A stretch of 64,000 nt of DNA from Negativicutes bacterium. Lineage in GTDB: Bacteria > Bacillota > Negativicutes > UBA1444. The translations under genes were made by a program, and so were the position numbers. Shown here one piece after another: positions 20,926 to 36,710 of the stretch. The notes beneath the pieces are model-generated. The model was not told where the DNA came from. It did not search any database and saw only the letters and a list, made by a program, of their open reading frames with translations. Every line of letters begins with the position of its first letter. Within the stretch, counting starts at the first letter, position 1. The stretch covers positions 640,001 through 704,000 of the forward strand of contig CAXXIN010000007.1 in the NCBI GenBank assembly GCA_963665275.2. Direction: 5' to 3'.

Positions 20926-21450
20926 ATGAACATCAATTGGAACAAAAAACTCGCAAGCGGCTTGGTACTCAGCAGCCTTCTACTATCGCTGGCTGTCGCC
21001 ATGGCGGCAGAGCCGCCAAACGCCCCTCCCGGACCCAACCCGGACGCCGTCCAGACCGGGAAGCCACGCCCAGAGGATCATGCCCAACGCCTACGCGCCA
21101 CACTGAAAAAACTGGTCGAAAAAAAGATTATAGAAGCCGACCAGGCGCATCGTGTAATATTGTTCTTTCACCAAAAAGATACCGAACGCAAAGCCGAATG
21201 GGATAAAATCCAAGCGTTAAGCGCAGACGAACGGGAAACTTATATGCAGCAACAATGCATACAACGGTGCCAGAAACGACCAGATTTGGTCAAGGACCTC
21301 ATGGAGGGAACCGGGTTGACTCAGGATCAGGCAAAAGCAATAGCCGATGAAATGCGTCCCCCACATGGTCCTGTTCCTGGCGGCCCTGGCGGCCCCGGCG
21401 GACCTGGCGGACCCGGACCCGAAAAACCTGACAACCCCACCGCGCCCTGA
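20926..21450 (+). CDS. Exported helical protein with Pro/Gly-rich termini
   Basis: Signal peptide ending AMA; EPPNAPPGPNP and PPHGPVPGGPGGPGGPGGPGP. Confidence 0.8.
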   Translation: MNINWNKKLASGLVLSSLLLSLAVAMAAEPPNAPPGPNPDAVQTGKPRPEDHAQRLRATLKKLVEKKIIEADQAHRVILFFHQKDTERKAEWDKIQALSADERETYMQQQCIQRCQKRPDLVKDLMEGTGLTQDQAKAIADEMRPPHGPVPGGPGGPGGPGGPGPEKPDNPTAP

Positions 21451-21466
21451 TTGTTCAAAAAATAGC

Positions 21467-21504
21467 AAGGATCACCTCCGCATGCTACGGATGGTGATCC
21501 TTGT
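21467..21504. terminator. Bidirectional terminator between convergent genes
   Basis: CAAGGATCACC...GGTGATCCTTG flanked by A/T runs. Confidence 0.65.
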
Positions 21505-21511
21505 TATTTTG

Positions 21512-21940
21512 TCATACAGTCCTGCTGAAACCACGAGATACCCCTTGGTACCAACGGCCGATATAGGCATTTCGAATATTCCGTGTAACCCGGTTGCCTC
21601 CCAAATGAACTGCAATTTCGTTTTTCTTTTCTTTCGCCGTTTGAACAAGCTGCATTTGAAGCTCTTTGATTTGATTTTGAAGTTCTTGAACCGCCTTGAA
21701 CCTTGCCTGAACAACAGCGCATCCTTGCCATTCCTGTTCGTCCATCTCCTTTTGCGCCATTATTGTTAAATCCTTCAACAGTTGTCCTCGTATTTGCAAT
21801 AGCCGCTTCAGTCCGCGCAATGATTTATGTTCGCCTTGAAGGAAACGAATCTGCCGTTCCGTATTATCCGCAATGGCTTCCAAAAGAACTATTTTTCTAT
21901 TCAACAGGTTCATATACTCGACTTGTGTCATCATAATCAC
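21512..21940 (-). CDS. FlgN/FliT-like flagellar export chaperone
   Basis: Small, helical, overlaps the fliD stop; C-terminal NAY...G motif. Confidence 0.55.
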   Translation of the reverse strand: MIMMTQVEYMNLLNRKIVLLEAIADNTERQIRFLQGEHKSLRGLKRLLQIRGQLLKDLTIMAQKEMDEQEWQGCAVVQARFKAVQELQNQIKELQMQLVQTAKEKKNEIAVHLGGNRVTRNIRNAYIGRWYQGVSRGFSRTV

Positions 21941-23871
21941 TCATCCGAACTCATTAAAGAGTCAATATAGGAACTTTGTGAATTCATCTCTTCGATCGCT
22001 TCTTCCATTGCAGAGAACTTTGCTTCCCATCGTTCCCGCAATGCATCCAAGCGATCTTCTTCTTTTTCAATTCGTTCTTCATAATCAGTGATTTTAGTAG
22101 TTAATGAATTATCGGTATCACTGCCGTCGCTATCCATTCCTGCCAACTCCAATAACCGTCCCTTATTTCCCGCTGAATCAGTAGATGTGGAAACATAATC
22201 GGATAAAATATCATAGAATCGTAGGGCGATCCCTTCTTCTTCGTAACGCGTTTCTCGTTCAGCACTGGTCATAGTCCTCACTGCCGAGTTGGTGGAATAT
22301 GAGGTCGACTTTTGCGCAAACAGCGCCTGTACTGCGGAAGCGTCTTCTTCAATTGCCGCCGTCAGTGCATCCTCGTCAATGTATAATTTGCCATTTTCAT
22401 CATACGTGCCTGAAGTAATACCAATTGCTGATAGCGACAACGAAGAATCCGATACCGAATCCATTAAGGCAAGTCGAAAATTGCGGAGCATATCACTCAG
22501 CGTATCATCTCCCTCAAGTAATCCTGTTTTTGCTTTCGCATTCCATTTTTCGATCTCGGTGTCGCTCATTTCCGCTTCCTCATCGTCAGTCAACGGAAGA
22601 TAATCGCTGTCATAATTTTCATCTAGTGTGTCGTTGATTGATTCAATCAATGTATTATACGCAACAACAAAATTGTCAATCAAATCATAAACGGCATCCG
22701 TATCTTGCTCAACATCCACCGTGACTTCTTCGGTTGTCACATCGGCAAGTTTATAAGTTACGCCATCCAGTTCAATCGAATTGGAGCTGCGAGTAACTTT
22801 CGTCCCATCGTAGACCATGATCGCGTCAGTTCCCTCTGCGGCCGTCCCACCTAACAAACTGGAGATAAACGAACTGCTGTCGCTATCCGCTACCGTCAGC
22901 ATCTCGCCGGCTCCCGTGTCATCAGATGTCAAAACCAGCATATCCGTCAGTTCATCATATTTGAGCGTTGCGCCACAATCCGAATCATTAACCGCATCAA
23001 TAACATCACCCAATGTTTCATCTTCCGCGAAAGTAAAAGAGGTGCCATTGATGGTAAACGTTACTTCATTATCGCCACTCGTTGAATTCGCAACGAAAGT
23101 CATTGCCGTATCTAATTGCGCAGAGATTTCCGCCAGTGTCGAATCCTCGGTAACTCTATTCGAAGTAACATCCGTTGAAGCAAATCCTAAATTTGTCAGC
23201 GCTCCATCCGATGTGCTATCCGCAATCGAAATCGACGACACCCCGCTGTCTGTAGCGGCAGTAAAAGTCAAAACACTTGCGCCATCAACCGTAGTAGTTC
23301 CGACCGTCACTTTGCCGTTACCGACTGCAGTGTCAACTGCATCCTGCAAAGAATCTGCATCGGTTACGGAAGAATCAATCGTTACCGTATAATCAGTTCC
23401 ATCCACCGTAATAACAAAGCTTTCTCCCACAGCGCTGGTATAATCCGCTGCGCTGCTGGCCGTGATGTCTTCGGATAACGTTGAGCTGCTGCTGATTGTC
23501 TCCGCCGTCGCCAACTGAGTCACTTCAATCGTGTGGGAACCAGCCTCCGCATCCACACCGGCAGTAGCCGTCACAGCCGAAGTATCGGAACTGGTTGTAT
23601 CAAATTGCAAATAGTTTGCTTGTTTGATCAGGCTGGATGAGGATGTGGATGAAAAATAGGTATCGACGAACTCCGACAAGTCGTCAATGATATCCCGATA
23701 CGCTTCCTGCTTCCATTCTGTCAGCTGCAATTGCTGATTTAACGAATCCAGTTTTGAACTTTCGGCATCGACCAGTTCATCAACAAGTGAAGCGGTGTCG
23801 ATTCCCGAAGCAAGTCCCGATATGGCAGTACTGCCGCTGCTGGTAGTGTAGGTGGTAATGCTGCTTGACAT
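21937..23871 (-). CDS. fliD: Flagellar filament cap protein
   Basis: ISGLASGIDT, EWKQEAYR, VTQLATA, YLPLTD..E..MS..EIEKW..KAKTGLL, C-terminal KFSAME. Confidence 0.93.
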   Translation of the reverse strand: MSSSITTYTTSSGSTAISGLASGIDTASLVDELVDAESSKLDSLNQQLQLTEWKQEAYRDIIDDLSEFVDTYFSSTSSSSLIKQANYLQFDTTSSDTSAVTATAGVDAEAGSHTIEVTQLATAETISSSSTLSEDITASSAADYTSAVGESFVITVDGTDYTVTIDSSVTDADSLQDAVDTAVGNGKVTVGTTTVDGASVLTFTAATDSGVSSISIADSTSDGALTNLGFASTDVTSNRVTEDSTLAEISAQLDTAMTFVANSTSGDNEVTFTINGTSFTFAEDETLGDVIDAVNDSDCGATLKYDELTDMLVLTSDDTGAGEMLTVADSDSSSFISSLLGGTAAEGTDAIMVYDGTKVTRSSNSIELDGVTYKLADVTTEEVTVDVEQDTDAVYDLIDNFVVAYNTLIESINDTLDENYDSDYLPLTDDEEAEMSDTEIEKWNAKAKTGLLEGDDTLSDMLRNFRLALMDSVSDSSLSLSAIGITSGTYDENGKLYIDEDALTAAIEEDASAVQALFAQKSTSYSTNSAVRTMTSAERETRYEEEGIALRFYDILSDYVSTSTDSAGNKGRLLELAGMDSDGSDTDNSLTTKITDYEERIEKEEDRLDALRERWEAKFSAMEEAIEEMNSQSSYIDSLMSSDE

Positions 23872-23892
23872 TGTCGGTTCCCTCCTTTAATG

Positions 23893-25011
23893 TCAGGATA
23901 AGTAATCGACCAGAGATTTGGTGATGACTTTCGCACCGACCGATAATGATGCGTCATAAATCGTTTGGGCTGTGGCATATTCCGTCGTAGCCACGGAAAG
24001 ATCCGAATCGATATTTGAGCTAAGCAATCCAGTATAGGTTGTGTAGTCACTGGTTAAGCGTGACGAACAAGTCTCCACATAATTCATGCGCGCTCCCAAA
24101 TCCGACGTTTCCGTGGAAATCGACGCCAAATTGGCATCAATCTCATCCAACAATCCATCCATAGTGAATGTTGTCGTAGTGGTTCCTGTTGCCAAGCCGG
24201 TAGTCGAGTCAACCACGACCGACTGATAACTGGTTTCACCACTCAGTCCGAGTAGCAGTTTGTCAATCGTATCAAATAAATTACCGTTTCCCGTCCCTGT
24301 CACACTCTGGCCTTCCACATTGACAGCCGTCTCACTGCTGTACCCGGTATTGTACTTGATTTCCTGCGCGGTTGTACTGGTGTAGATATTACTGGTCGTC
24401 GTTGACCCGCTCGTTGTCGAAGCATAGGTATTGTAGGCATCCACTAACCCTGTTGAGTCAACCGAACTTGATACCACACTATATAAACTGAGATAGCTTC
24501 CTTTAAATGTCGTTTGTTCCAGCTCTGTTGCATCTCCAGTAGTAGAATCCGTTACAGTAGTCGTCGCTGAATCATATGGTGCCTCATCCGTGGAGTATCC
24601 GCCGAAAATATAGCGTCCTGCATACTGTGTATTCATCAATTCAACGATACTGTCTTTTATTTCGGATACTTCCGCCGAGATGGCCGCAAGTTCAGTATCA
24701 TCCAAAATATCGCTGGAAGCTTGTGATGTTAGATCACGAATTTGCTGCATTGCATCTGTCAGAGAATCCAGTGTACTCGACGTCACTTTCATCCATGAAG
24801 TAGCATCAGTGGCGTTCGACTGATACTGCTCAATTTTCGCTATGACACTGCGATATTGCAACGTCTTGGTCGCCGCAACCGGATCATCCGAAGCTTCCTG
24901 AAACTTCACGCCGGTCGACGTTTCTTCTTGCGCATCACTCAAACGCCCCATATTATCATTAATATTTCGGATTACACTTTGGGTCATCATGGTGTTTGTG
25001 ATCCGCATCAT
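23893..25011 (-). CDS. flgL: Hook-associated protein 3
   Basis: MRITNTMM, SDDPVA, GRYIFGG, LGARMN, SLVDYL. Confidence 0.92.
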   Translation of the reverse strand: MMRITNTMMTQSVIRNINDNMGRLSDAQEETSTGVKFQEASDDPVAATKTLQYRSVIAKIEQYQSNATDATSWMKVTSSTLDSLTDAMQQIRDLTSQASSDILDDTELAAISAEVSEIKDSIVELMNTQYAGRYIFGGYSTDEAPYDSATTTVTDSTTGDATELEQTTFKGSYLSLYSVVSSSVDSTGLVDAYNTYASTTSGSTTTSNIYTSTTAQEIKYNTGYSSETAVNVEGQSVTGTGNGNLFDTIDKLLLGLSGETSYQSVVVDSTTGLATGTTTTTFTMDGLLDEIDANLASISTETSDLGARMNYVETCSSRLTSDYTTYTGLLSSNIDSDLSVATTEYATAQTIYDASLSVGAKVITKSLVDYLS

Positions 25012-25037
25012 TGTCTCCACCCTCTTTCGTTCATCTT

Positions 25038-26588
25038 TTAACCGTCGACCATATCCAGCATGGTCTGATACACTTCTTGCCACATACTAACGGCTTTGGC
25101 CGAAGCGGCAAAAGATTCTTGGTACAGAACTAAATTGGTAGTTTCTTCAGTGGTTGACACGCTGGATACAGATGCACGCCTGGTATCTATCGCACTCAAA
25201 ATTGTGTCATGTCTATCTGTTTGCGTTGTTGCATAGGAATTGGCTGTGCCTAGCGTTGCCGTCATGGATTCCAAATAATCGCTCAAGCTGCAATTGCCGA
25301 AAACCTCTTGCGAGTCGCAAAGATCAATCAACTCCAGCATATTTTCCGCATTCTCCGTCTCTGTCGTATCAGATGACGAAGAGGCTGCAATATTGGATAC
25401 ATCACTTAGCACCTCATATGACAGTGAAATATTCGCCGCCGTTATCTTGGAGTAAGCTGCGGCAGTTTCTTCATCGGTGGGAGTTGTCGTTCGATCCAGG
25501 AAACTTGTGGAACTCGTTTCATCGTAAGTGAAAAAGCAAATTCCTGTATCGCCATCGGAATCATACCCGTCGGCATGACCGGAATAACTGCTGGTTCCTT
25601 CATTAAAGGCTTCAGCCAAAGTTTGGGCGTACTCATCCAGTTGATCCATATAATAAACGATGCCCTTATAGTCTCCATTTTCTCCCGTACCATCGCGCAG
25701 TTCCAGCAATGCCCCCAGTTGCCCGCTTTCCGGAGTTACTGAATCGCCGGTATCACTCCACACCACCTCATACATACCGTTGTCTGTACTGGTGGAATCG
25801 ACCACTTCATTGCATTCCAGCGTCCGATAGTTACTGCCGTTGACCAACGTGCCGCCATCAAGTGTAATAACCAGCGTTGTAACTTTTTCTCCCGAAACGG
25901 ACGTACCTGCCGAAGTTTCCGTTACTTCAACATTCACTAAACTTGATAACTTATCGATCAAGAGATCTCTCTGATCTTCCAGATCACTGGCGTCACTACC
26001 GCCGACCTGCGCTTTCTGAATCTGTTGATTCAAAGCGGCAATCCGTTCACTATAGGAATTGATCTCCGATACGGAAGTTTTGACGTCTTCGTTCAAAGAA
26101 TCCCGTTCACTTGACAGAGATGTCGCCATACTGTTCAAATAATCGCAAACCGCTTGCCCGGCCTGTTGCAAACAAGTCCGGGCATCCGTGCTGTTGGGGT
26201 CGGTAGAAACGTCTTCCAATGCGGCGGAGAAGTCACTCATAACCGTGTCGAACCCATCTTCGCTGCTGATGTCTTCCAGTACGTCTTCCAACTCACCCAG
26301 CGTCGTCGACTTGGTTTCCCATGCTATCGCCACACTGTTTTCGTCCCGGTACTCGGCATCAATCAACGCATCTCGTTCTCGAGAAATCGAAGTAATTTCA
26401 GTTCCAGAACCGGTGCTGGCGCTTGAAATATATATAGCTGCCGGGCCTATCGCCGACTGAGTAACCGTTTTGCGGGAATAACCGTCCGTATTGGCATTAC
26501 TAATATTATTGGTCGCAACCGACATCGCCGCCTGACTGGCATATAATCCAGTCGTGGCCGAATATAATCCGGTAAAAGTCGAAGACAT
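25038..26588 (-). CDS. flgK: Hook-associated protein 1 (copy 2)
   Basis: NNISNANTDGYSRK, DLEDQRDLLID, SGQLGALLELRD, SVSSVS..EE. Confidence 0.9.
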   Translation of the reverse strand: MSSTFTGLYSATTGLYASQAAMSVATNNISNANTDGYSRKTVTQSAIGPAAIYISSASTGSGTEITSISRERDALIDAEYRDENSVAIAWETKSTTLGELEDVLEDISSEDGFDTVMSDFSAALEDVSTDPNSTDARTCLQQAGQAVCDYLNSMATSLSSERDSLNEDVKTSVSEINSYSERIAALNQQIQKAQVGGSDASDLEDQRDLLIDKLSSLVNVEVTETSAGTSVSGEKVTTLVITLDGGTLVNGSNYRTLECNEVVDSTSTDNGMYEVVWSDTGDSVTPESGQLGALLELRDGTGENGDYKGIVYYMDQLDEYAQTLAEAFNEGTSSYSGHADGYDSDGDTGICFFTYDETSSTSFLDRTTTPTDEETAAAYSKITAANISLSYEVLSDVSNIAASSSSDTTETENAENMLELIDLCDSQEVFGNCSLSDYLESMTATLGTANSYATTQTDRHDTILSAIDTRRASVSSVSTTEETTNLVLYQESFAASAKAVSMWQEVYQTMLDMVDG

Positions 26589-26611
26589 AATTCACCTCCA
26601 GAAGCTACGCA

Positions 26612-28111
26612 TCACCTTATCAGTGAAATAATATCCGATACCAGGCCGTCCACAAGACTTAGATATTTCGAGGATGCACTATAGGCGGTTTGGTACTCAA
26701 TCATTTTAGACAATTCATCCTCCATAGAAACACTCGATACTGACAATCGATCGGTGTTGGTTTGCGTGGTCAGACTTTCCTGCGTCGTCACCAGTCCTGC
26801 CGTCGTTTCGTTTTCCGTCGCCAGCCAGGAAACAACGGCTGTATAATAATCGTCGACACTCTTGGAAAGCCCATCGACCTCCAACAGATCCGAATCTTGC
26901 AGCCCGGCAATCGCAGTCGCGATTCCCCCGTCACTGGCCTCGCCGGTCGCAGATACCGCCAACAAGGACGAGTCTGAAGACAAGGCTGAATTGACCTGGA
27001 TATTGCTGATGTTTAATCCTGTTCCGTCGCCTGTTCCGCTGTTGATGAAGAACACCGTCGTATTGGTGTTGGTTGTGTCGGTTTCACCAAGTTCAACGCC
27101 GGAACTAAAAAGATCATTCACTTTGTAGGCAATCGTCGTGATCAAAGCATTCAATCCTTGTCGCAGTTCTCCGATCGAACTGGCGGATGAGGGGTCGAAA
27201 TCATACGGAAGATCTGTACTGGAAATAGTCAGCACGGCGCTCTGATCAGCGTCTTCCATCTGGGCCAAAATACTGCCGGAAGAAAAGCCCACAGTTTTGC
27301 CCGTTTCCGCCCAAGTCACCGTCAACGGATCGTTCGCTGATCCGTCTCCAGACGCAACCAATGTATGTGTCTTATCATCACTGACCAGGTACACGCCGCC
27401 GATCAAAACTTGATATGTTCCATCAGTCTGTACGTTGACTGTAACGTCTGCCAAATCAGACATTTGATCAACCAAGGTGTCACGCTGATCCTCCAGATCG
27501 TTGGCTGTATATCCTTTGGTTTCTGCAAGTTTGATTTGCGAATTCAAATCAGCTACCTGTGTCGCCAAGTCGTTTAACGTATCCACCGATTCGTAAACAT
27601 TCGCCGCACATTCTTCCTGCAGTTGCTGCAACTGAGAATCCATTTCCGACACTAAATCCACCAAGCTGGTTGCCGATTCCAGAACCGTATCCTGTGCACT
27701 CGTACTGGAAAGATCTTTCGCGAGCTCTTCCCAACTGGAAAAAAAATCTTCCATGGCCAATTGTACGCCTGTTTCCTCTGCTGAGTCATCCGATGTAGAG
27801 GTTGAAAAATCGCCCAGCAAAGCCTCCGCGCTGCTCAAAGTATCGCTCTTGGCTTCATAGTAATACAGGTCCGCATTTTCACTGCGATAGGTCCGATCCA
27901 GCATTGTGCTTCGCAGGCGCGTAACCGAATCCAAAGCAACGCCTGTCCCCAGAACCGCCGACGAAGTGACAATTTCGGAAGTATTCGTCCGTTGCCTGGA
28001 ATATCCCGTTGTATTGACATTCGCCAAATTATGGCTGATCGTCTCCAAAGCTGTTTGGTTGACGGACATTCCTGTATAACCCAGACTATATGAGCCGATT
28101 GTAGAAGACAT
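26612..28111 (-). CDS. flgK: Hook-associated protein 1 (copy 1)
   Basis: HNLANVNTTGYSRQR, NDLEDQRD, SVSSVSMEDE..MIEYQTAY.AS. Confidence 0.9.
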   Translation of the reverse strand: MSSTIGSYSLGYTGMSVNQTALETISHNLANVNTTGYSRQRTNTSEIVTSSAVLGTGVALDSVTRLRSTMLDRTYRSENADLYYYEAKSDTLSSAEALLGDFSTSTSDDSAEETGVQLAMEDFFSSWEELAKDLSSTSAQDTVLESATSLVDLVSEMDSQLQQLQEECAANVYESVDTLNDLATQVADLNSQIKLAETKGYTANDLEDQRDTLVDQMSDLADVTVNVQTDGTYQVLIGGVYLVSDDKTHTLVASGDGSANDPLTVTWAETGKTVGFSSGSILAQMEDADQSAVLTISSTDLPYDFDPSSASSIGELRQGLNALITTIAYKVNDLFSSGVELGETDTTNTNTTVFFINSGTGDGTGLNISNIQVNSALSSDSSLLAVSATGEASDGGIATAIAGLQDSDLLEVDGLSKSVDDYYTAVVSWLATENETTAGLVTTQESLTTQTNTDRLSVSSVSMEDELSKMIEYQTAYSASSKYLSLVDGLVSDIISLIR

Positions 28112-29517
28112 CAGCTCACCATATTGATGACAGTTTGCATCATGTCATCAGACACAGTAATCAGTTTGCTTGCCGCCTGATACGCCCGCTCCGCTACCAT
28201 CATCTCCGCGAATTGAGATGATAAGTCCACATTCGATGCTTCCAGCGCCCCGGCGGTCAGGGAACCCGTACCTCCACTTCCTGCGACCACTGCGCCATCG
28301 TACGAACCGGAATTCGCACTTGCGGCATACAGACTGGTCCCGACTTTATCGAGACCACCGGCATTGTTGAAACTAGCCAACCCGATCTGAGCCAGCACCT
28401 GTGTTTGATTATTACTGTAGACCCCGGTAATCGTACCATCGGAGCCGATAGAGTAACTCGACAGAGTACCGCTTGCGTACCCGTCGCTGGAATCTACGGC
28501 AATAGAACCCTCCGTATAGAGACTAACGGCAGAAACATCCATGGAAACTGTGAAATCATCGATGTTAACCAGCTTGTTGCCACTGGCGTCCGTAGCGGCT
28601 GCCATGCTGATGTCATAGGTCTTAGAAAAAGTATAAGTTTCAGGAGTTGATCCCGTTACTGTCGGATCCGAACTGTAATAAGTCCCTGTCAGCAATTTCC
28701 CCGTTGAGTCAAATGCCAGATAGCCGCTGCCGGAAGCGTTGACATTATCGGCTGAATCAGACGCCTCCCAATATACGGTCGTAACAGTCGTTGCCGTGCC
28801 ATCCTCGTCATAAACTGCAGCTGAATAGCATTTTGTAAAATCCACATCCACATCATATTCATTGCCGAGCGCATCATACACCGATATCGTGGCCGAAGTG
28901 TCCGCGTCCAAATCAGTTGTAGCGCCGATATCAAAAACACTGTCCCCCTGCGCCTCTGCCGTCGAATCCAGTGTGCCATCCATCGTCGCCGTGGTTGTTT
29001 TTTCAGGCGCGATCACCTGCTTGCTGGATCCGTCGGCATTATAAAAAAGATTAATGCCTGAAACCGCGGCCTCCGTATCGATCACCTGATCCGCATCCGG
29101 TTCCCAACCGCAGACTTTATATCCGTTCACATTCAGGTTCCCCTCCGCATCCACGCCGAAATTACCGGCCCGCGTGAAATAGTAACTTCCTGTGGTGTCG
29201 CCTTCCACAATGAAGTACCCGCCCCCGTTGATCGCCACATCAGTGTCGACTCCGGTACTGGTAATGCTGCCACTCGTCACATTTGTCGATATTGCGGCCA
29301 CGGATACGCCGAGGCCGATCTGCTTGGCATTGGTGCCGCCGGTGTTGGAAGTTGTGCTTGCTCCCGAAGACGAGCTAAGGGTCTGACTAAGCAAATCAGA
29401 AAAAGTGGCGGTCTGACTTTTATAGGCCACGGTGCTCACATTGGCTAAGTTGTTCCCGATGACATCCAGTTTGGTCTGTTGCGCGTTCAGCGCCGTTAGT
29501 GCCGCATAAACCGACAT
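28111..29517 (-). CDS. flgE: Flagellar hook protein
   Basis: LDVIGNNLANV, QIGLGV, FTRAGNF, VYDALG, LEASNVDL. Confidence 0.92.
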   Translation of the reverse strand: MSVYAALTALNAQQTKLDVIGNNLANVSTVAYKSQTATFSDLLSQTLSSSSGASTTSNTGGTNAKQIGLGVSVAAISTNVTSGSITSTGVDTDVAINGGGYFIVEGDTTGSYYFTRAGNFGVDAEGNLNVNGYKVCGWEPDADQVIDTEAAVSGINLFYNADGSSKQVIAPEKTTTATMDGTLDSTAEAQGDSVFDIGATTDLDADTSATISVYDALGNEYDVDVDFTKCYSAAVYDEDGTATTVTTVYWEASDSADNVNASGSGYLAFDSTGKLLTGTYYSSDPTVTGSTPETYTFSKTYDISMAAATDASGNKLVNIDDFTVSMDVSAVSLYTEGSIAVDSSDGYASGTLSSYSIGSDGTITGVYSNNQTQVLAQIGLASFNNAGGLDKVGTSLYAASANSGSYDGAVVAGSGGTGSLTAGALEASNVDLSSQFAEMMVAERAYQAASKLITVSDDMMQTVINMVS

Positions 29518-29628
29518 CTTTCTTCATCCTCCCGACAACTCTATTTCCTTATTGATTTCCGAAACAGAAGCCGGCCTCCCTGTAAGGGTCCAGCCGAGTT
29601 CTCGGTATCCCTTGTTTTGACGAACACT

Positions 29629-30045
29629 TTAAGTTGCCGTCCCGTTGACGGAGGTAATGTCGCTATAACTTACCGACGTACTGCCGATCGTAAGAGAAGC
29701 TTTCCCGCTGCTGACAGTCACCGCCGACACCGTTCCGCTGCCCGTGGTCGTCGTTCCTGAGTCATCTGTAGTGCTGTAGGATACATCCTGTCCTATCAGA
29801 CTAAAGGCCGAAGTTGCTTCTGCTGTGCTGCTCATGGAGGATAGCTGTTCGAGTGTGCTCATCTGCGCCAATTGAGAAACCAGTTCCGTGTTTTCTACCG
29901 GATTCGTCGGGTCCTGATTTTGCAATTGTGCGCACAGAAGCGTAATGAAGGATTCAAAACTGGCCAGACTGCTAGTGGCTGTAGTGCTGCTAAGAGTGCT
30001 GGACGAGGCCGTAACCGTACCTGTACTTGAAATGCTTGTACTCAC
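29629..30045 (-). CDS. flgD: Hook capping protein
   Basis: FITLLCAQLQNQDPTNP, QLAQMSTLEQ; GTG start at 30045 behind AAGGAG. Confidence 0.9.
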   Translation of the reverse strand: MSTSISSTGTVTASSSTLSSTTATSSLASFESFITLLCAQLQNQDPTNPVENTELVSQLAQMSTLEQLSSMSSTAEATSAFSLIGQDVSYSTTDDSGTTTTGSGTVSAVTVSSGKASLTIGSTSVSYSDITSVNGTAT

Positions 30046-30156
30046 CTTACTCACTCCTTATCTTTTTCGCTCTTGTTTTTTGGAGGATCAGTCATGCTTT
30101 CCCGATGACTATAACTTTCAGATATTTTTCTTCATTTGGTATTTCCACATCTCATA

Positions 30157-30173
30157 TTAGATTTTTGTTTGAT
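30157..30173 (-). promoter_or_regulatory. Direct-repeat box upstream of the flgD operon
   Basis: Minus strand ATCAAA-caaaa-ATCTAA. Confidence 0.5.
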
Positions 30174-30302
30174 TATTTGCTGGAATAGATTTATATTCTC
30201 TTTGAAAATAAAAATATGCTCCGCAATAAGACCCAAAGCCCTATTCTACAGCTTGTTCTCGAACATTATAAATTTTGAATGATTTTTTCATAGCTAATAA
30301 AA

Positions 30303-30336
30303 ATTAAATGATTTTCTAATATATTCCCCCTATAAT
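30303..30336 (+). promoter_or_regulatory. Direct-repeat box and TATAAT upstream of the orphan regulator
   Basis: ATTAAA-tgatt-TTCTAA at 30303-30319; TATAAT at 30331. Confidence 0.5.
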
Positions 30337-30401
30337 TCAAATGGAAAGCTAAGATGGCAAATTTTACTACATGGACGTAGCCACACTTGGGGGAGACTCT
30401 C

Positions 30402-31058
30402 GTGAAACTTCTTTTGGCGGAAGACGAGCCGAAACTTGCCAGTGCCTTGTCTTATCTGATGAAGAAAAACGGATACATCGCCGATGTTGCTTCCAATGGA
30501 GAAACGGCCCTGGAAATGGCTGCTACCGGAGTCCATGACATGTTAGTTTTAGACCGGGCATTGCCGCTCCGTGATGGGCTATCGGTTCTCAAAGAATACC
30601 GGTCTTTGGGTTTTGATAACCCAGTCCTCTTTCTGACCGCCCTCGACTCCCTTCAGGATCGCGTCGAAGGCTTGGATGCCGGCGCTGACGATTATATGGT
30701 CAAACCCTTTTCGTCGAACGAGTTACTCGCACGAATGCGCGCTCTGACCCGCCGAATTGCTCCTGCAGATAAAATCAATTTTGTTATGGCGGCTGGCATC
30801 ATCCTTGATCCTTCACGCAGTGAAGCAAAAATCAGTGATTCCTGGATAAAACTGACGGTGAAAGAATCTATGATTTTGGAATTGTTGATGCGCAACTTTG
30901 GGCAAGTCATCCCGACTGATCGTATCCTGGAAAAAGTTTGGGGAGAACAGTCCGCCGTATATCGGCCTTATGTACACTTGTACATTCATTATCTGCGAAA
31001 AAAGCTCCCAGCCATTTGTTTAAAAACCATTCACGATGTTGGCTATTCTCTGCAATAA
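30402..31058 (+). CDS. Orphan OmpR-family response regulator, paralog of 9234..9920
   Basis: LDRALP, FLTA, DDYMVKPF; shares LTVKES..LELLMRN.GQVI and YIHYLRKKLP with the 9234 protein. Confidence 0.9.
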   Translation: MKLLLAEDEPKLASALSYLMKKNGYIADVASNGETALEMAATGVHDMLVLDRALPLRDGLSVLKEYRSLGFDNPVLFLTALDSLQDRVEGLDAGADDYMVKPFSSNELLARMRALTRRIAPADKINFVMAAGIILDPSRSEAKISDSWIKLTVKESMILELLMRNFGQVIPTDRILEKVWGEQSAVYRPYVHLYIHYLRKKLPAICLKTIHDVGYSLQ

Positions 31059-31153
31059 TCATTCACCGAACCGCGTGTGCCGCGCAGAATTTTTTCTGCG
31101 CATTTTTTTTTACCACCAATATTTTTTGATAAAAATTTTTATGGGTATTCGAT

Positions 31154-31170
31154 TTCAAATATTCTTCTAA
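31154..31170 (+). promoter_or_regulatory. Direct-repeat box upstream of flagellin
   Basis: TTCAAA-tattc-TTCTAA, with AATAAT 16 nt downstream. Confidence 0.5.
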
Positions 31171-31286
31171 TTTTTTACATCGAACAAATAATTAGCCGGG
31201 GAAGGTTGAGGTGATTCCAGTGAACTAAGCAGCAGAAAACACCAGGGTAAGCCACCGACTCATGAGCTGGGGTAAGCTCAAAAAGG

Positions 31287-31321
31287 GGAGTAAGGATACT
31301 CCACCTAAAAATTCAAGGAGG
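31287..31321 (+). promoter_or_regulatory. CsrA-type binding hairpin and SD in the flagellin leader
   Basis: GGAGTA-AGGA-TACTCC hairpin with GGA in the loop, then CAAGGAGG, as in Firmicute hag leaders. Confidence 0.7.
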
Positions 31322-31329
31322 AAAAAATC

Positions 31330-32553
31330 ATGATTATCAATCACAACATGGCGTCTTTGAACACATTGAACTCCTTAAACGCCAACAGTACGACCATGCA
31401 GAAATCCTTAGCCAAACTGTCTTCCGGTCTGCGGATCAACAGTGCAGCCGATGATGCTGCCGGACTCGCGATTTCAGAAAAAATGCGCGGTCAGATCAGC
31501 GGCCTCGACACCGCCAGTTCCAACGCCCAGAATGGTATATCGCTCCTGCAGACAGCGGAAGGTGCGCTCGATGAAACCACCAGCATTCTACAACGTATGC
31601 GTGAGTTGGCGGTAGAATCTGCTAGCGATACCATTACCGACGATGATCGAGATGATATCCAGTCTGAGTTCTCGGAACTAACCGAAGAAATTGACCGAAT
31701 TGCCTCTACCACGCAATTCAACACCAAAAACCTGCTCGACGGCTCGATGAGTAGTGATAATACCACCGTTACTGCGAACGTATCTGAAAACACTTCTTTC
31801 GCATCTGCAACCACATCCGGCACTCTCGCGACCGCTTTGACGGACTCCAGCGGCAATTCGTTGGGAATTACCGAAGGCGATACCATTTCACTCAGTTATG
31901 TCAAAGATGGTGCTCTGCAAACGACCTCATTCACAGTCACTTCCGCTACCACCGTTGCAGATCTCGATACAGGAGATTTTGCAATAACAACCGCTACGAC
32001 AGGCACACTGACTGCTACGGCGACCACCGGCGGAACAACAACTGCGGTGTATGGATTAACTTATACTGTAACGGATTCTGATGGCGACAAGAGAACCACG
32101 GCCAGCGATGCGTTATCAGATTTTACGCAGACCACTGCCGCCAATAATTTGCGTGCTGATGGCTCGGCCACAATTTTGATTGGCGCCAACACTGGACAAG
32201 ATTTCAATATTTCAATCGATGCCATGGACGCCAGCTCACTTGGCGTAGCCAATCTTACCGTCACATCCCAGACGGCAGCCGAAGTGGCCATCTCGGTCAT
32301 CGACACCGCAACTTCAATGGTGTCGGCTGCACGTGGTAAAATGGGCGCCGAAGAAAATCGTTTGGAACACACCATTAACAACTTAACTACAGCCAGCGAA
32401 AACACCACGGCAGCTGAGTCCCGTATTCGCGATGTAGATATGGCGGCTGAAATGGCAGAGTACACCAAGCTCAGTGTTATCAACCAAGCTGCCACTGCTA
32501 TGTTGGCACAATCCAATCAGTTGCCCCAACAAGTTCTGTCACTTCTGCAATAA
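31330..32553 (+). CDS. fliC: Flagellin
   Basis: MIINHN, KLSSGLRINSAADDAAGLAISEKMR, ESRIRDVDMA, QQVLSLLQ. Confidence 0.97.
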   Translation: MIINHNMASLNTLNSLNANSTTMQKSLAKLSSGLRINSAADDAAGLAISEKMRGQISGLDTASSNAQNGISLLQTAEGALDETTSILQRMRELAVESASDTITDDDRDDIQSEFSELTEEIDRIASTTQFNTKNLLDGSMSSDNTTVTANVSENTSFASATTSGTLATALTDSSGNSLGITEGDTISLSYVKDGALQTTSFTVTSATTVADLDTGDFAITTATTGTLTATATTGGTTTAVYGLTYTVTDSDGDKRTTASDALSDFTQTTAANNLRADGSATILIGANTGQDFNISIDAMDASSLGVANLTVTSQTAAEVAISVIDTATSMVSAARGKMGAEENRLEHTINNLTTASENTTAAESRIRDVDMAAEMAEYTKLSVINQAATAMLAQSNQLPQQVLSLLQ

Positions 32554-32597
32554 CCTCACAATCTCAACCTGACCCGGTAACAAATTCTCATAAACAT

Positions 32598-32626
32598 AAG
32601 GGATGTACTCTTGTACATCCCTTGAT
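32598..32626 (+). terminator. Hairpin after fliC
   Basis: AAGGGATGTAC-tctt-GTACATCCCTT. Confidence 0.65.
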
Positions 32627-32655: not shown

Positions 32656-34611
32656 ATGGCAACAATTTCTCTATGTGTTATCACCAAAAACGAACATGAT
32701 AATATTGCCCGTTGCCTGCGTAGCGTTAAAAACGATGTCGCTGAAATGATCGTTGTCGATACAGGCTCTTCGGATGATACGGTCTCCATTGCCCAATCAT
32801 TGGGTGCTAAAATTTTTCATTACACTTGGGCTAATGATTTTTCCGCCGCACGTAACTTTGCATTGGATCAGGCTGTCGGGGACTGGATCATATTTTTGGA
32901 TGCCGACGAATATTTTGAGCAAGGTACAAGCACTGCGCTTCCAGATGTTGTGCGGAAAATTCACGGGAATCGAAAAATTGATGCCGCTTGCATATTAATG
33001 AAACATATGGAATCAATTGATGGAGCCGTGATCGCGCACACCCAACTTGTTCGCCTTTTTCGTCATTCCCGGCTGATCCGATATCACGGGCGAATTCATG
33101 AAGCGATATACAAGCAGGGACGCAGTCCTGTTGCAGTTTATGTGCCGGAATCAACGTTAGCTATTCGGCATACCGGTTACTCGCAATCCAGATTACCTGA
33201 AAAAGCTCTTCGGAATCTTCCACTATTGGAGCAGGAAGTCGCAGACAATGCAACCAATTGTCTGACTTACTATCATATCAGTCAATCACATATTCTATTG
33301 CATAATTATGAGCAGGCTGCTCATTACGCTTTGAAAGCACTCGAAAATAATGAAGAAATTATGTTTTCCAACGCCCGCTATAAGCCTTACGTTTTTTATA
33401 TCAAAAGCATGCTATTATTGAACTTATTCATGCAAGACAAAGTCGCAACGATGGTTGCAGAGGCATTGGAAAAGCATCCTGACCATCCAGAAATATTGCA
33501 CTGCATCGGCATGTATCATCAAAAATGCGGTCGCTACTCCAAAGCATTACCGTTTTTAGTGCAATCCTTGGTTGCGAATGAAAACTTTCACAGCAACTTG
33601 GACAATGAATTCTTGAAAATCAAGGGACAAGTTCAAGAGGAAATTGCCGTTCTTCACGATAAGATGAATCATGTGTCGCAAGCCTTCGATTATACCATTG
33701 CCGCCCTTAAATCTGACAAGCATCTTGGTTCGTCTTTGGCGCGGCTTCTCTCTCAAGTCAAAACGCAAAAACCTGCCGACATTGTTCAATTGCTTGACAG
33801 TCTCTACAACGTTCAAAACAAGGCTGATGTTGATTTTTTAGTTCGCAATCTCGCTGTGTTGAATCAGAAACACCTGTTCGCCCACTATCTCAAGTTGCTA
33901 TCCACACAGTTCCAGGAAAACTATTTTATCGGTATGAAATTCCTTGTATGCGATAAATACGAAGCGGCTTTTCAGTGTTTTGCGACGCTCGTTGAGCATT
34001 CTAATCCAGATGGCGCCGAGCTATTCGCAGTGGTTTCTTGCCTTTTGGCCGACCGCCCAGATTGGCTGTCCAGCTTAGTATCACCAGCCGACTCTCCATT
34101 GCGGAAAATCGCCAGTATATATTTCCAGTTGGATTCAGCAGTTGATCTGTCCGATGTGAATTTTTCATCCTACTCCACGCTATTTCTAAATTTCATCCAC
34201 TTGAGTTCAGAAGAACAATTATTTCGGCTACTGCAAGTTTCTTCTCGTTTCTTGCAACCAGGCGCCCCTCTGAAAGTGTTGGATCATCTGATAAAGTATC
34301 ACGTATATCCGCCTGTTTTTCATTTTTGTTTAGAGCGGCTGCAAACAACAACAATTACTTCCGACTTGGCCGGACAGTATTCTATGCGTGCCGGTTTTTG
34401 TTGCTATAAAGTTAAGGACTGGGAACATGCTGTATTTTTTTTCAGACAAGCCTTACCACACGAAACGTCTCGAAGTGCCGCAGTAGAGTTATTAACCTGG
34501 TCGTATCAACAATGCCTCGATCCTACTGTACGCAAAAAAATAGAAGCCATCTGCGAAGAATACAATCTAGACCTTGCTCTGCCGGCGCATACTCCAGTTA
34601 ACGGGGTGTGA
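32656..34611 (+). CDS. GT2 glycosyltransferase with TPR repeats (flagellin glycosylation type)
   Basis: ISLCVITKNE, VDTGSSD, DFSAARN, FLDADE, GRIHE, HTGY; helical C-terminus; follows fliC. Confidence 0.88.
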   Translation: MATISLCVITKNEHDNIARCLRSVKNDVAEMIVVDTGSSDDTVSIAQSLGAKIFHYTWANDFSAARNFALDQAVGDWIIFLDADEYFEQGTSTALPDVVRKIHGNRKIDAACILMKHMESIDGAVIAHTQLVRLFRHSRLIRYHGRIHEAIYKQGRSPVAVYVPESTLAIRHTGYSQSRLPEKALRNLPLLEQEVADNATNCLTYYHISQSHILLHNYEQAAHYALKALENNEEIMFSNARYKPYVFYIKSMLLLNLFMQDKVATMVAEALEKHPDHPEILHCIGMYHQKCGRYSKALPFLVQSLVANENFHSNLDNEFLKIKGQVQEEIAVLHDKMNHVSQAFDYTIAALKSDKHLGSSLARLLSQVKTQKPADIVQLLDSLYNVQNKADVDFLVRNLAVLNQKHLFAHYLKLLSTQFQENYFIGMKFLVCDKYEAAFQCFATLVEHSNPDGAELFAVVSCLLADRPDWLSSLVSPADSPLRKIASIYFQLDSAVDLSDVNFSSYSTLFLNFIHLSSEEQLFRLLQVSSRFLQPGAPLKVLDHLIKYHVYPPVFHFCLERLQTTTITSDLAGQYSMRAGFCCYKVKDWEHAVFFFRQALPHETSRSAAVELLTWSYQQCLDPTVRKKIEAICEEYNLDLALPAHTPVNGV

Positions 34612-34643: not shown

Positions 34644-36710
34644 TCAACCTATCTTGCTGTTTGCAAGGGTCTTTGCTTTTTCGTTGTTCACTAATTCAAT
34701 GATCGATTTTGCTCTCTTAATTTCTTGGGGATATTGCGCAGCACCCGCACTTGAAACGAATTTTGCAAAAGCCTCCACTGCCGGATCCACTTCACCCAGT
34801 TTCATATGAAGTTCGGCTTTATTAAAGAGCCAAATCGGATTAGCGCCAAAGAGCAAGGCAATTTCAGTGCATGATAATGCTTCTTTGAACATATTGTTTT
34901 TGAAAAGCACTTGCACTAAATTTCCCAGTGGTTCCAAGGTGCTGATAACATTTTTCTTTTGCACAGAATATTCTTGGGCCAAGCACGCAGCATTGCGTGC
35001 TAAATTTTTAGTATAGTTTATTGTTTTGGGGCTCGTATATTTCAATGCAATGGGCAGAATATGCGATAAATCAACGGGTTTCTTTTGCGTTTTCACCTCA
35101 GCATTTTTGTCGGCAAGATCATAATGCTTAGCCATTTCCGCCAACATATGAGCGGTTACCTCGCCCCCCTCCATCAAAGAAGTAAACAGTACTTCCCAAT
35201 GGAAACCCTCACCCGCTTTTCGGTCATATCTTGATAACGAATTTATCCATCCTACATATATTTTTGACTTTAACTGCTCTATCGACCGCAATGGAAAATG
35301 GGCAATCCTAAGCTCTTCTATGACAGCCTTACCTATACTGTTTCCGTCATGATGTTGGATTACAACATCATGCGACCCCATTGCCAATTGAAGGCTCTGC
35401 CTCTGCATAACATACTTGCTAACCATTACTTTATAAAACTTTTCATATTGTTCTTGCCGCATATGCTGCATTTTTAATAACGCAACCGGCTCTTCCGGAT
35501 CATCGTTGCCATCTGGAATATATGTCCGCCATTTTACATAATGGAGTTTTTGCAAATCAACTTCTTCCAATACGACTCTGGGATTTTCCGACTCATTCGG
35601 GACAATAAATTCGTCAGCATCCAGAGGAATAATCAAATCCGGTTGAAACGTTTTCATTGCCTCGTGAAGAATTTGGCTCATTTTGGCATCTTGCAAATAA
35701 TTTGTCTCAGGGTCATCGTATATATATAGTGGAAATCCTTCCGAACGTAAATTTTCCAGAATGGACTTGGTATCATCACAACTTCCGTTATCTACGACCA
35801 CCATTCCATCAAAAATATTCATGTGATATCGCACGAAAGACTCAATAATATCTTCTTCGTTTTTAATCATACTGATGGAGAATATCTTTCTTTTCGGCGT
35901 CGCAAAGCTACATTTTCTACATAACACGGAAACCGTGTCATGGTCTAAATACTGGCGAATATATTCTTTTTTTTCGTTCAGTAAAATGTCATCATATTCA
36001 TCTTGCATGAGGTTTCCCATAATATATTCCATGCCGTAATCCATGCAGCAAAGTACCACTCTGCCGTCCGGCAACAGCACGTTATGATTCAAATCAATAC
36101 CGGACAAACAACACTGAATTCGTCCACGGTGGTGAACCCGATTCATTTTGATCCCGCCGCTATCCTCAACATTGCCGGCGCGGTCATGAATAGACAGACG
36201 CATATTAACATCGACAATTTTTTGAACTTCTGACGGAGTCGGCCCATGTGCACAAAATTTCATGATTTTCTTCAGCCTATCGGGCGCCGTTGAAACAATG
36301 CACTGCAATAATTGCAAGTATTCCGCTGTAACCATGATTTTTGAATTGCCATCGATATCCGGCAGATGAATGACAAAATCCGTGAAGTCAATGCCCTTAA
36401 TGCGATCAAAATCATCTAATGTCATACCAACTAACGTAGTGTATACCGCAATTCGATGGCCTTTTTGCGCTGCATACAAAAGCATCTGGGTTGCATCCGG
36501 GTTAAGCCAAGGCTCCGCCATACCTGAAAAATCAATCCGGACACTGGCGGGAACTTTATCAATGCAATTTTTATAGGTTTCCATGGTTAAAACATTAACA
36601 TTAGAGCATTTTGAGTATTCTTGTATCAATTTCAATTGCGGGCAAAGCACACAATCCACTTTACAGCCGATCCGAGTTGTAATTTCCAAAGTGCCAGCGG
36701 ATTTTATCAT
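34644..36710 (-). CDS. Radical SAM/SPASM-like domain fused to a GT2-like glycosyltransferase and a TPR tail
   Basis: CKVDCVLC (CxxxCxxC), FSGMAEP, DGRVVLCCMD..GNL..CRKC; then MIKNEEDII, VDNGS, PLDADEF, HFPLRS. Confidence 0.8.
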   Translation of the reverse strand: MIKSAGTLEITTRIGCKVDCVLCPQLKLIQEYSKCSNVNVLTMETYKNCIDKVPASVRIDFSGMAEPWLNPDATQMLLYAAQKGHRIAVYTTLVGMTLDDFDRIKGIDFTDFVIHLPDIDGNSKIMVTAEYLQLLQCIVSTAPDRLKKIMKFCAHGPTPSEVQKIVDVNMRLSIHDRAGNVEDSGGIKMNRVHHRGRIQCCLSGIDLNHNVLLPDGRVVLCCMDYGMEYIMGNLMQDEYDDILLNEKKEYIRQYLDHDTVSVLCRKCSFATPKRKIFSISMIKNEEDIIESFVRYHMNIFDGMVVVDNGSCDDTKSILENLRSEGFPLYIYDDPETNYLQDAKMSQILHEAMKTFQPDLIIPLDADEFIVPNESENPRVVLEEVDLQKLHYVKWRTYIPDGNDDPEEPVALLKMQHMRQEQYEKFYKVMVSKYVMQRQSLQLAMGSHDVVIQHHDGNSIGKAVIEELRIAHFPLRSIEQLKSKIYVGWINSLSRYDRKAGEGFHWEVLFTSLMEGGEVTAHMLAEMAKHYDLADKNAEVKTQKKPVDLSHILPIALKYTSPKTINYTKNLARNAACLAQEYSVQKKNVISTLEPLGNLVQVLFKNNMFKEALSCTEIALLFGANPIWLFNKAELHMKLGEVDPAVEAFAKFVSSAGAAQYPQEIKRAKSIIELVNNEKAKTLANSKIG

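Follow-up and report, generated by a model that had tools for sequence, protein, structure and literature searches.

The locus described here raises the question of why a bacterium would carry a second set of genes for the extracellular half of its flagellum. A Negativicutes bacterium (GenBank assembly GCA_963665275.2) has such a set, termed the kit, in a stretch of 64,000 nucleotides of contig CAXXIN010000007.1 (positions 640,001 to 704,000; the window). A first-pass annotation, made from the letters of the sequence alone, proposed that the kit is a swappable outer flagellum under selection on surface chemistry, and that its proteins have systematically lost conserved prolines and basic residues. 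Our analysis supports an exterior-only kit, a primary set of the same genes elsewhere in the genome, and a composition shift that extends over six protein families and co-varies within kits. These findings fit a swappable exterior whose surface chemistry matters; the part of the proposal that did not stand is proline as a special signal. From sequence we infer both the swapping, that is, expression on a signal and assembly on a shared basal body, and a selective reason for the chemistry. With a probability of about 0.58, the kit is an accessory module in an old family and would equip the shared basal body with an alternative exterior that is functional and probably controlled by its own regulator.

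A flagellar exterior beside a single core machinery

Pfam assigns to the genes between 21937 and 32553 the same names as the first-pass annotation had given them (Table 1). The two kit FlgK proteins match FlgK_D1 with E-values of 1.8e-50 and 6e-42, above the curated cut-off, and the FliD_N/C, FlgD and FliC Flagellin_N/C matches all exceed their curated cut-offs as well. In FlgL, Flagellin_N lies above its cut-off, and Flagellin_C, at 21.3 bits, lies under the 23-bit cut-off. The kit FlgE contains PF00460 (E 5.5e-9), PF22692 (E 1.3e-9) and PF06429 (E 5.3e-15), and aligns with the chains of solved FlgE structures at E 2e-48. FlgE_D2 (PF07559), which is matched by the primary FlgE of this genome, is absent from the kit FlgE at E<=0.001; its D2 stretch aligns weakly with D2 of Salmonella FlgE (E 7.6e-4). 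The kit FlgE has 468 amino acids (aa), compared with 603 aa in its nearest relatives (L038 and L039, positions 10001-11812; L codes denote loci and G codes genomes of the comparison set, G000 being the source genome). The ~135 extra residues of these relatives rematch query residues 179-309, which suggests that a tandem domain copy has been lost or gained.

The 142-aa open reading frame (ORF) after fliD has by itself no Pfam match. In an alignment of 16 homologs that follow fliD in kit loci, Pfam FlgN is found in 11 (E 4.5e-5 at best) and FliT in 6, and the profile has FlgN 5b3d as its best solved-structure match (E 0.018). Because of these matches, which are weak but consistent, the ORF is predicted to encode a FlgN/FliT-like export chaperone. 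ORF 20926-21450 is without a Pfam match.

The reported absence of rod, ring, motor, export, fliK and flgM genes is borne out by a Pfam scan of 56 window ORFs (17 + 39), none of which encodes such a protein. Nor do these 56 ORFs include the parts that a complete secondary flagellar system has of its own, namely an export gate (FlhA/FlhB/FliPQR), MS and C rings, a rod and a stator. The genome assembly (20 contigs, 92.6% complete) contains one FHIPEP/FlhA, one FliK and one FlgM, all outside the window. A classical fla operon, flgB-flgC-fliE-fliF-fliG-fliH-fliI-fliJ-fliK-flgD-flgE-fliL-fliM-fliY-cheY-fliOPQ-flhB-flhA-flhF-flhG, is located on contig C9. The late locus of the primary set, on contig C19, comprises flgM, flgK-flgL-DUF6470-fliW-csrA-fliC, a Maf-like gene and flaG-fliD-fliS.

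The primary fliD appears to contain three frameshifts. Its classification as a pseudogene was rejected, as these are single-base insertions of the assembly. Across C19:152999-157999 of G000 (L035:3000-8000), 10 single bases are missing in the contigs of two sequencing runs from different studies, and the 5-kb stretch is otherwise letter-identical in both; four of the 10 inserted bases lie inside primary fliD. Without them, the frame is open for 498-507 aa, which is the length of primary FliD in relatives. Because the frameshifts are local insertion errors, the primary set is intact, and the paralogs that the first-pass annotation had expected elsewhere in the genome are present in full for hook, junction, cap and flagellin.

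Similar errors may affect other genes. At the end of the primary fla operon (C9:85000-87500; L036:335-2499), cheA and cheB appear as short ORFs (Hpt, H-kinase_dim, receiver and CheB_methylest pieces), a fragmentation that is likely due to assembly errors. In the window, argininosuccinate lyase (60232-61651) is split into two overlapping ORFs, one with the N part of Lyase_1 and the other with its C part and ASL_C2; this split may be an assembly indel like that of primary fliD.

A third, partial set lies at C20:13660-17484 (L034). Of FlgK, only the C-terminus is present, at the contig end; the set further includes FlgL, a FliD interrupted by a single frameshift, a chaperone, and a regulator paired with a kinase, and is 60-65% identical to the window kit. 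No third FlgE is found in the assembly.

A family of accessory modules in Negativicutes

By gene order and phylogeny, the kit is a member of what appears to be an old and widespread family of accessory distal-flagellum modules in Negativicutes, rather than a local oddity. Modules of this family, as defined in this analysis, have the order flgD-flgE-flgK2-flgK1-flgL-fliD-(chaperone) with fliC nearby, and their FlgE, FlgK, FlgL and FliD belong to the kit groups on the trees; the window module shows both this order and this placement. The kit operon is present in 0-3 copies per genome across Negativicutes, always with a primary set. Matching gene order is found in two congeneric species, Sporomusa rhizae DSM 16652, a Pelosinus sp. 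and several metagenome-assembled genomes (MAGs) of Sporomusaceae, Negativicutes and Bacillota. In the cultivable strain Sporomusa rhizae DSM 16652, the kit is located at 1.01-1.03 Mb and the primary loci at 2.53 and 4.20 Mb. Five kit genomes each also have a primary hook gene beside flgC/fliK and a primary flgK/fliD locus, and all 10 genomes whose match rows were inspected have a primary hook plus one to three FlgE-FlgK-FlgK trios. Neither exterior-only flagellar modules nor a duplication of flgE-flgK operons in Negativicutes are described in the text available to a full-text literature search that covers few subscription journals.

Of 251 genomes sampled from the class, 126 contain one or more Flg_bbr_C matches. 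The number of matches per genome clusters at 5-6, 8, 11 and 14, and 36 of the 126 flagellated genomes have at least 8, the number expected for a primary set and at least one kit; these are match counts, with adjacency inspected in 10 genomes only. The figure of 36 is a lower bound, because G000 and G172 score 7 yet carry a kit. In all five genomes with 11-14 matches whose rows were inspected in full, the extras are FlgE-FlgK-FlgK trios that share a strand at spacings of ~1.5 kb; G065 has three trios, whereas G056, G062, G132 and G176 have two each, in agreement with ORF labelling. The best E-value of the kit FlgE query gave no basis for sorting genomes: its distribution is not bimodal, since matches are broken up by domain insertions and some primary hooks reach 1e-60. 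Flg_bbr_C match counts were used in its place.

Phylogenetic trees separate kit from primary proteins. For FlgE (IQ-TREE, LG+C20), 21 kit rows and 10 primary rows, the latter including two Clostridia MAGs, are split by one branch with a support of 100. FastTree trees show one such branch, again with a support of 100, between kit and primary FlgL (18 vs 8 rows) and FliD (16 vs 8), and for each of the three FlgK groups (20 K1, 21 K2 and 8 primary rows). Multiple kits of one genome fall into different subgroups of the kit group on the FlgE tree. The grouping is not only compositional attraction, because kits without depletion of Lys, Arg and Pro still lie inside the kit group.

Seven structural proteins of the kit are 73-86% identical to their L039 orthologs, except FlgD (63%), and synonymous sites are saturated. 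The ratio of nonsynonymous to synonymous substitution rates (dN/dS) against L039 is 0.03-0.06 in the five of 10 genes for which it could be computed (dS is saturated in the other five). The kit genes are under purifying selection.

Composition of the kit proteins

The proline counts given by the first-pass annotation are reproduced exactly for FliD (1 in 644 residues), FlgL (2 in 372), the two FlgK proteins (4 in 516 and 3 in 499), FlgE (4 in 468) and FliC (1 in 407). An alternative GTG start of FlgL at 25083, upstream of the ATG, yields 396 aa, again with 2 Pro. For FlgD the count of 2 Pro is correct, but the length is 141 aa and not 138. The estimate of about 14 Lys plus Arg (K+R) in FlgE likewise agrees with the 12 Lys and 2 Arg found. 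A comparison with the 2522 genomic ORFs that reach 200 aa places the kit proteins no higher than the 1.5th percentile for Pro and the 7.5th for K+R, and no lower than the 98.7th percentile for net negative charge and the 99.6th for Ser plus Thr (S+T). Kit FliD is the extreme of the whole set on two measures, with the smallest share of Pro and the largest net negative charge. The composition of the kit is far beyond chance within its own proteome.

The only other proteins in the genome that are equally acidic and equally poor in Lys, Arg and Pro are three RTX calcium-binding repeat proteins of 1148-1534 aa, encoded at C19:195713-218329 (L098, L099). A subtilase with an RTX repeat is encoded in the same stretch.

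In the primary set of this genome, the Pro counts are 20/541 for FlgE, 5/136 for FlgD, 6/514 for FlgK, 15/412 for FlgL and 6/498 for FliD. The primary FliC has 1 Pro in 413, in accord with the caveat of the first-pass annotation that flagellins are Pro-poor anyway. K+R amounts to 4.8-10.6% in the primary proteins vs 1.4-6.3% in the kit. Medians over paired sets from 12 further genomes and kit-only loci (Table 2) extend this difference beyond a single genome; ORF fragments under family-specific minimum lengths were dropped, and the frameshifted primary FliD of G000 was excluded. In all six families, the kit medians are lower for Lys, Arg, Asn, Gln, Pro and Met and higher for Ser and Tyr (Tyr not in FliD). 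Thr, Ala and Asp are higher in five of six families, and Glu is clearly higher only in FlgK and FliD. The largest gains are in Ser, Thr and Ala: Ser and Thr in four families, and Ala with Ser or Thr in FlgK and FlgL. The shift is present in well-aligned core columns and variable parts alike. The robust signal is a module-wide loss of Lys, Arg, Asn and Gln and gain of Ser, Thr and Ala, with Asp and Glu up in most families. Amino-acid bias driven by G+C content was set aside by codon-table reasoning, as residues with AT-rich codons (Lys, Asn, Ile, Phe and Met) and with GC-rich codons (Pro, Arg and Gly) both fall.

Table 2. Median Pro and K+R content (%) of kit and primary proteins
Protein	Pro, kit	Pro, primary	K+R, kit	K+R, primary
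FlgD	1.45	2.93		
FlgE	1.59	3.18	3.6	6.0
FlgK	0.80	1.54	5.0	7.8
FlgL	0.93	3.32	6.0	8.8
FliD	0.62	1.60	6.6	10.2
FliC	0.35	0.49	4.9	10.0

The primaries differ in composition from the kit in all six families, whereas among the nearest database homologs, many of which are kit-type, FliD is the only outlier. Its Pro share is below that of 150 of 150 database representatives, with only 2 of 150 having less K+R and only 2 of 150 having more Asp plus Glu (D+E). The Pro share of FlgK1 equals the median of its homologs (0.78%, n=119), that of FlgE is at the 10th percentile, and that of FlgL is at about the 2nd-3rd. The loss is not specific to the lineage found here but is a trait common to the kit family; the window clade (window, L038 and L039) is the extreme end of a family-wide trend.

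A test of conserved sites distinguishes the residues that have been lost. Of 1163 columns with a residue common to at least 70% of primaries, the window kit retains 600 (52%). By Fisher's test against all other columns, retention is low for K+R (40/104, 38%, p=0.005; Lys alone 14/51, 27%) and for Asn plus Gln (69/158, 44%, p=0.03), and high for D+E (77/122, 63%, p=0.007). Pro is retained at 7 of 20 sites (35%, p=0.18). The proposed loss of conserved basic residues is therefore demonstrable, as is that of amide residues, whereas loss of conserved Pro is inseparable from general divergence and does not constitute a special signal. The low Pro total arises mostly because Pro residues are few anywhere in these families, which like flagellar axial proteins in general are Pro-poor, and because the variable domains are Pro-free. 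The six positions that the first-pass annotation named as Pro all check out on alignments with primary paralogs. Pro occupies the bracketed position in 9/10 primaries and 9/21 kits at FlgE GGTN[A]KQIG, in 10/10 and 10/21 at FlgE FNN[A]GGL, in 7/8 and 9/18 at FlgL [A]SDDP, in 7/8 and 0/18 at FlgL ..[T]KSLV, and in 8/8 and 12/16 at FliD EED[A]; at FlgK KGI[V]YY it is found in 0/8 primaries but in 31/41 kit FlgK proteins.

Composition also co-varies among the proteins of a kit. Over 22 kits, the 21 pairs of the seven proteins have median Spearman coefficients of 0.77 for K+R, 0.76 for S+T and 0.54 for Pro, and all pairs are positive, although these figures overstate the support, because related genomes and kits are not independent, and describe rather than test. 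The co-variation fits a shared driver that acts on the whole exterior. The selected property might be charge, hydration or glycan sites, the binding of Ca2+, or protection from Lys/Arg-specific proteases. The direction of change (Lys, Met, Ile and Phe down; Asp, Glu, Thr and Ala up) is like that seen in proteins from high-salt surroundings.

These observations bear on the possibility that the composition merely reflects neutral drift of the lineage after an old duplication, so that the poverty in Pro and Lys has no adaptive meaning. Drift would accommodate the general scarcity of Pro in axial proteins (FlgK1 at the median of its homologs, primary FliC with a single Pro), the retention of conserved Pro at a rate like that of all columns, the evenness of the shift over core and variable parts, and the presence of undepleted kits (L073 and L077) at the base of the kit group. 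It does not readily account for a shift in the same direction in six protein families, for positive K+R correlations in 21 of 21 protein pairs, for maintenance of the composition despite saturated synonymous sites, or for values that are extreme within the proteome. Moreover, depleted kits coexist with non-depleted or intermediate kits in one genome, as in G132 (L072/L073), G065 (L078/L077), G176 (L081/L082) and G062 (L086/L085). We consider drift unlikely.

The kit proteins are also distinguished by cysteines. In FlgE, a first Cys (NGYKVCGW in the window) is present in 20/21 kits and 3/10 primaries, and a second (DFTKCY) in 20/21 kits and 0/10 primaries; in the window FlgE, each has a Lys 1-2 residues ahead. 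Kit FlgK1 has three semi-conserved Cys columns; of the 41 kit FlgK rows, K1 and K2 taken together, 15-20 have a Cys in each column. The primary FlgE, FlgD, FlgK, FlgL and FliC of this genome have no Cys, and Cys is otherwise nearly absent from these families. Lysinoalanine links have been reported in the extracellular hook of Synergistota in a 2026 preprint (PMC13228583). The lysinoalanine-linked hooks of spirochetes and Thermanaerovibrio (PMC13228583) and the kit have in common a hook protein with conserved Cys, which is a rarity among axial proteins. So far as the spirochete site can be placed, the kit Cys residues do not appear to lie there: their counterparts are Gln and Val in Treponema FlgE (chain 6ndx_B, which has no Cys in the aligned stretch), and in Salmonella FlgE both are Thr. 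No match to the spirochete-type lysinoalanine site was found in this alignment.

Regulation, proposed assembly and possible biological meaning

A consensus of TTAAG-N17-CGATAA/T is found ~70-130 bases before the start of primary fliC in 11 of 11 cases (leaders in L075, L080, L084, L088, L092, L094, L096 and G000 C19), and is by its sequence a sigma-28-type promoter of class-wide distribution. The consensus was derived by inspecting primary fliC leaders; a strict search for TAAA-N13-17-NCGAT[AT] missed even the primary promoters. In one of three primary fliC genes of Sporomusa rhizae, the promoter lies 11 bases before the start called by the ORF finder. TTAAG-N14-17-CGAT[AT] is present upstream of 10/10 primary fliC genes and that of G000, in contrast to 0/14 kit fliC genes and none in the window. 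No sigma-28-type match was found in the control region at 30055-30386, and a sigma-70-like scan of 20800-32800 gave 19 sites vs 16.9 in shuffles and is therefore uninformative. YCGATTT was rejected as a kit promoter motif, as its occurrence (3/15 kit fliC and 2/19 kit flgD, vs ~0.5 and 0.8 in shuffles) is too weak. Because terminator-like hairpins follow both the regulator gene (31082-31101) and fliC (32597-32624), fliC is its own unit.

Of 22 kit loci, 12 have a gene for an OmpR-type regulator at a distance of up to 2.5 kb, and 15 have one at up to 6 kb, vs 0 of 7 primary late loci; four of the seven kit loci that lack one are cut by contig ends. By eye, the receiver of the window regulator is canonical: it contains an acidic pair, an Asp (in MLVLDR) and both the Thr motif and the Lys motif. 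In the fliC leader of the window kit (31287-31322), an AAGGAGG ribosome site stands behind a hairpin with a GGA loop, an arrangement also found in the primary set and, by eye and uncounted, in most kit and primary leaders. A GGA hairpin loop just upstream of a GGA-containing ribosome site is the layout of CsrA flagellin control at Bacillus subtilis hag, and fliW and csrA are located in the primary late locus.

These elements suggest how the kit may function. It encodes every extracellular part of a flagellum, but no part of the basal body or motor, no export gate, no hook ruler and no sigma/anti-sigma pair, each of which occurs once in the genome. Upon activation of the regulator, kit FlgD and FlgE would be exported via the single flagellar type III apparatus to form an alternative hook that sits on the common rod. 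Once the substrate switch that depends on FliK has taken place, FlgK1/K2, FlgL, FliD and FliC of the kit would form an alternative junction, cap and filament, with the kit flagellin still under FliW/CsrA translational control. The resulting exterior would have an isoelectric point of about 4, half the Lys plus Arg, less Asn, Gln, Pro and Met, and much more Ser, Thr, Ala, Asp and Glu, and would probably be heavily O-glycosylated.

Several points weigh against this reading, in addition to the reservations stated above on the census and the correlations. Kit and primary flagellins are not cleanly separated on their tree (3 changes), and the window FliC is 57% identical to the primary FliC of its own genome. 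The kits L073, L077 and L082 are undepleted (primary-like) and L047 and L085 are little depleted or intermediate; kits are therefore not defined by this chemistry. The window fliC leader contains a loose sigma-28-like TAAA-N16-TCGATTTC, common to L039, which makes the case weaker than a clean absence of sigma-28 sites. A TAAA..GCGA(T/A)A-like block precedes flgD in five kits elsewhere by eye (L051, L072, L078, L081 and L090; a regular expression finds 3/18). Sigma-28 may therefore still contribute to kit expression. No kinase gene lies beside the window regulator.

Kit and primary subunits might instead be mixed in one flagellum, like the subunits of multi-flagellin filaments. Such co-assembly would suit the single export gate, the CsrA-type leader that kit and primary fliC share, the intermingling of kit and primary flagellins on the tree, and the two FlgK paralogs per kit, which imply that mixed junctions are tolerated. 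However, mixing needs no full parallel set that includes a hook cap and a filament cap. The lack of the primary-type sigma-28 promoter at kit fliC and the frequent adjacency of a dedicated regulator also argue for separate use. Overall, co-assembly seems quite unlikely.

A nitrogen-sparing flagellum, that is, a low-nitrogen version of an abundant structure for times of nitrogen scarcity, is improbable. Lys, Arg, Asn, Gln and His are all lower in kits, and the window kit has 0.09-0.22 side-chain nitrogen atoms per residue, compared with 0.23-0.33 for the primary set and a proteome median of 0.33, so that relative to the primary set the kit shows the lower side-chain nitrogen of element-sparing paralogs. 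However, FliD, FlgK, FlgL and FlgD are present in few copies per flagellum, and the shift in these proteins, where nothing is gained, is equal or stronger, which is hard to reconcile with nitrogen sparing. The loss of Pro and Met and the gain of Asp and Glu would be unexplained as well, and no nitrogen-control element was seen, although none was looked for. A silent relic of horizontal transfer, or secreted proteins with a non-motility role such as adhesion, might be suspected from a G+C content of 0.41-0.45 over 30-40 kb of the window vs about 0.50 around it and from patchy presence in the order (kit-type FlgE match in 5 of 13 genomes), but is highly improbable given intact kit genes, the low dN/dS values, and gene order and content that are conserved across families of the class.

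The preferred reading, an alternative exterior on a shared basal body, can tentatively be extended to the family. Genomes might possess a 'wardrobe' of 0-3 interchangeable hook-to-filament cassettes that re-skin the whole exterior on one type of basal body, graded in charge and hydroxyl content, many with a nearby OmpR-type regulator, some with their own chaperones and glycosylation genes, and with hooks covalently reinforced via two Cys.

The genes that flank fliC include candidates for glycosylation. Homologs of the GT2-TPR glycosyltransferase adjoin kit fliC in L038, L039, L040 and L081. The fusion of a SPASM iron-sulfur domain to a GT2 glycosyltransferase near a flagellin gene (34644-36710) is unusual. 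An acidic EF-hand protein with 3-4% K+R (window 38669-39385) adjoins the kit, and a 60% identical copy is found in L038 and L039.

Table 1. Features of the kit region (positions are those of the window)
Feature	Position	Strand	Basis and remarks
Kit region overall	21512-38503		flgD, flgE, two flgK, flgL, fliD, putative FlgN/FliT-like chaperone, fliC, OmpR-type regulator, glycosyltransferases
Putative FlgN/FliT-like export chaperone, 142 aa	21512..21940	-	directly after fliD; Pfam matches of homologs
FliD filament cap, 644 aa	21937..23871	-	Pfam FliD_N, FliD_C; 1 Pro, 4.7% K+R, 19.9% D+E
FlgL (HAP3), 372 aa	23893..25011	-	Pfam Flagellin_N/C; ATG start is the database form
FlgK1 (HAP1 paralog), 516 aa	25038..26588	-	Pfam FlgK_D1; 6 Cys
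FlgK2 (second HAP1 paralog), 499 aa	26612..28111	-	Pfam FlgK_D1
FlgE hook protein, 468 aa	28111..29517	-	Pfam Flg_bb_rod, D1, Flg_bbr_C; two kit-specific conserved Cys
FlgD hook cap, 141 aa	29629..30054	-	Pfam FlgD, FlgD_tudor; 44% S+T, 2 K+R
AT-rich divergent control region, flgD to regulator gene	30055..30386	.	sequence reading
OmpR-family response regulator	30387..31058	+	Pfam Response_reg, Trans_reg_C
fliC leader	31130..31329	+	loose TAAA-N16-TCGATTTC (31130-31156), GGA-loop hairpin (31287-31302), AAGGAGG ribosome site
FliC flagellin, 407 aa	31330..32553	+	Pfam Flagellin_N/C; monocistronic; hairpin behind (32597-32624)
GT2 glycosyltransferase with TPR repeats, candidate flagellin glycosyltransferase	32656..34611	+	Pfam
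SPASM domain and GT2 glycosyltransferase	34644..36710	-	Pfam; putative kit role, from position only
GT2 glycosyltransferase fused to methyltransferase	36731..38503	-	Pfam; putative kit role, from position only

Flagellin glycosylation islands contain GT2-TPR enzymes such as Listeria GmaR, or Maf proteins. The kit resembles them in that glycosyltransferase genes adjoin fliC; the primary late locus instead has a Maf/MptE-like gene and a gene for UDP-N-acetylglucosamine (UDP-GlcNAc) 2-epimerase. It differs in that its glycosylation is putative and its Ser/Thr enrichment reaches hook and cap proteins, which to our knowledge are not known glycosylation targets.

Dual flagellar systems are represented by Enterobacterales flag-2, Rhodobacter sphaeroides Fla2 and the second apparatus of Pseudomonas fluorescens F113 (PMC6993521, PMC6180460, PMC5031763). 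In the available text of these reports, they have, like the kit, second hook, hook-associated, cap and flagellin genes beside a primary set, and are separately regulated, as the kit may be. However, as described there, they code for a second flagellum in full, basal body, export apparatus and motor included, whereas the kit lacks genes for all three and FlhA, FliK and FlgM each occur once in the genome. Multiplicity and switching of flagellins are known from Salmonella fliC/fljB and the six flagellins of Caulobacter (PMC4861720, PMC7591256). There, alternative filament subunits are used on one basal body, as is proposed for the kit, but according to the available text only flagellin is multiplied, whereas the kit multiplies the hook cap, hook, both junction proteins, filament cap and chaperone as one operon. 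Known second flagellar systems duplicate the machine in full and known flagellin switching alters the filament only, whereas the conserved, multi-copy kit module duplicates exactly the extracellular half.

If the proposed function is correct, several structurally distinct hooks, junctions and filaments would have to be served by a single basal body with one export gate and one hook ruler, and the kits would be a natural system for learning which flagellar interfaces must co-evolve. Genomes that contain both a primary set and a kit supply built-in controls for such comparisons. The decrease in Lys, Arg, Asn, Gln and Pro together with the increase in Ser, Thr, Asp and Glu is a signal that can be related to pH, salt, Ca2+, nitrogen supply, proteases and phages. 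The kits would then show how bacteria tune the surface chemistry, the glycosylation and perhaps the cross-linking of a motility organelle to conditions.

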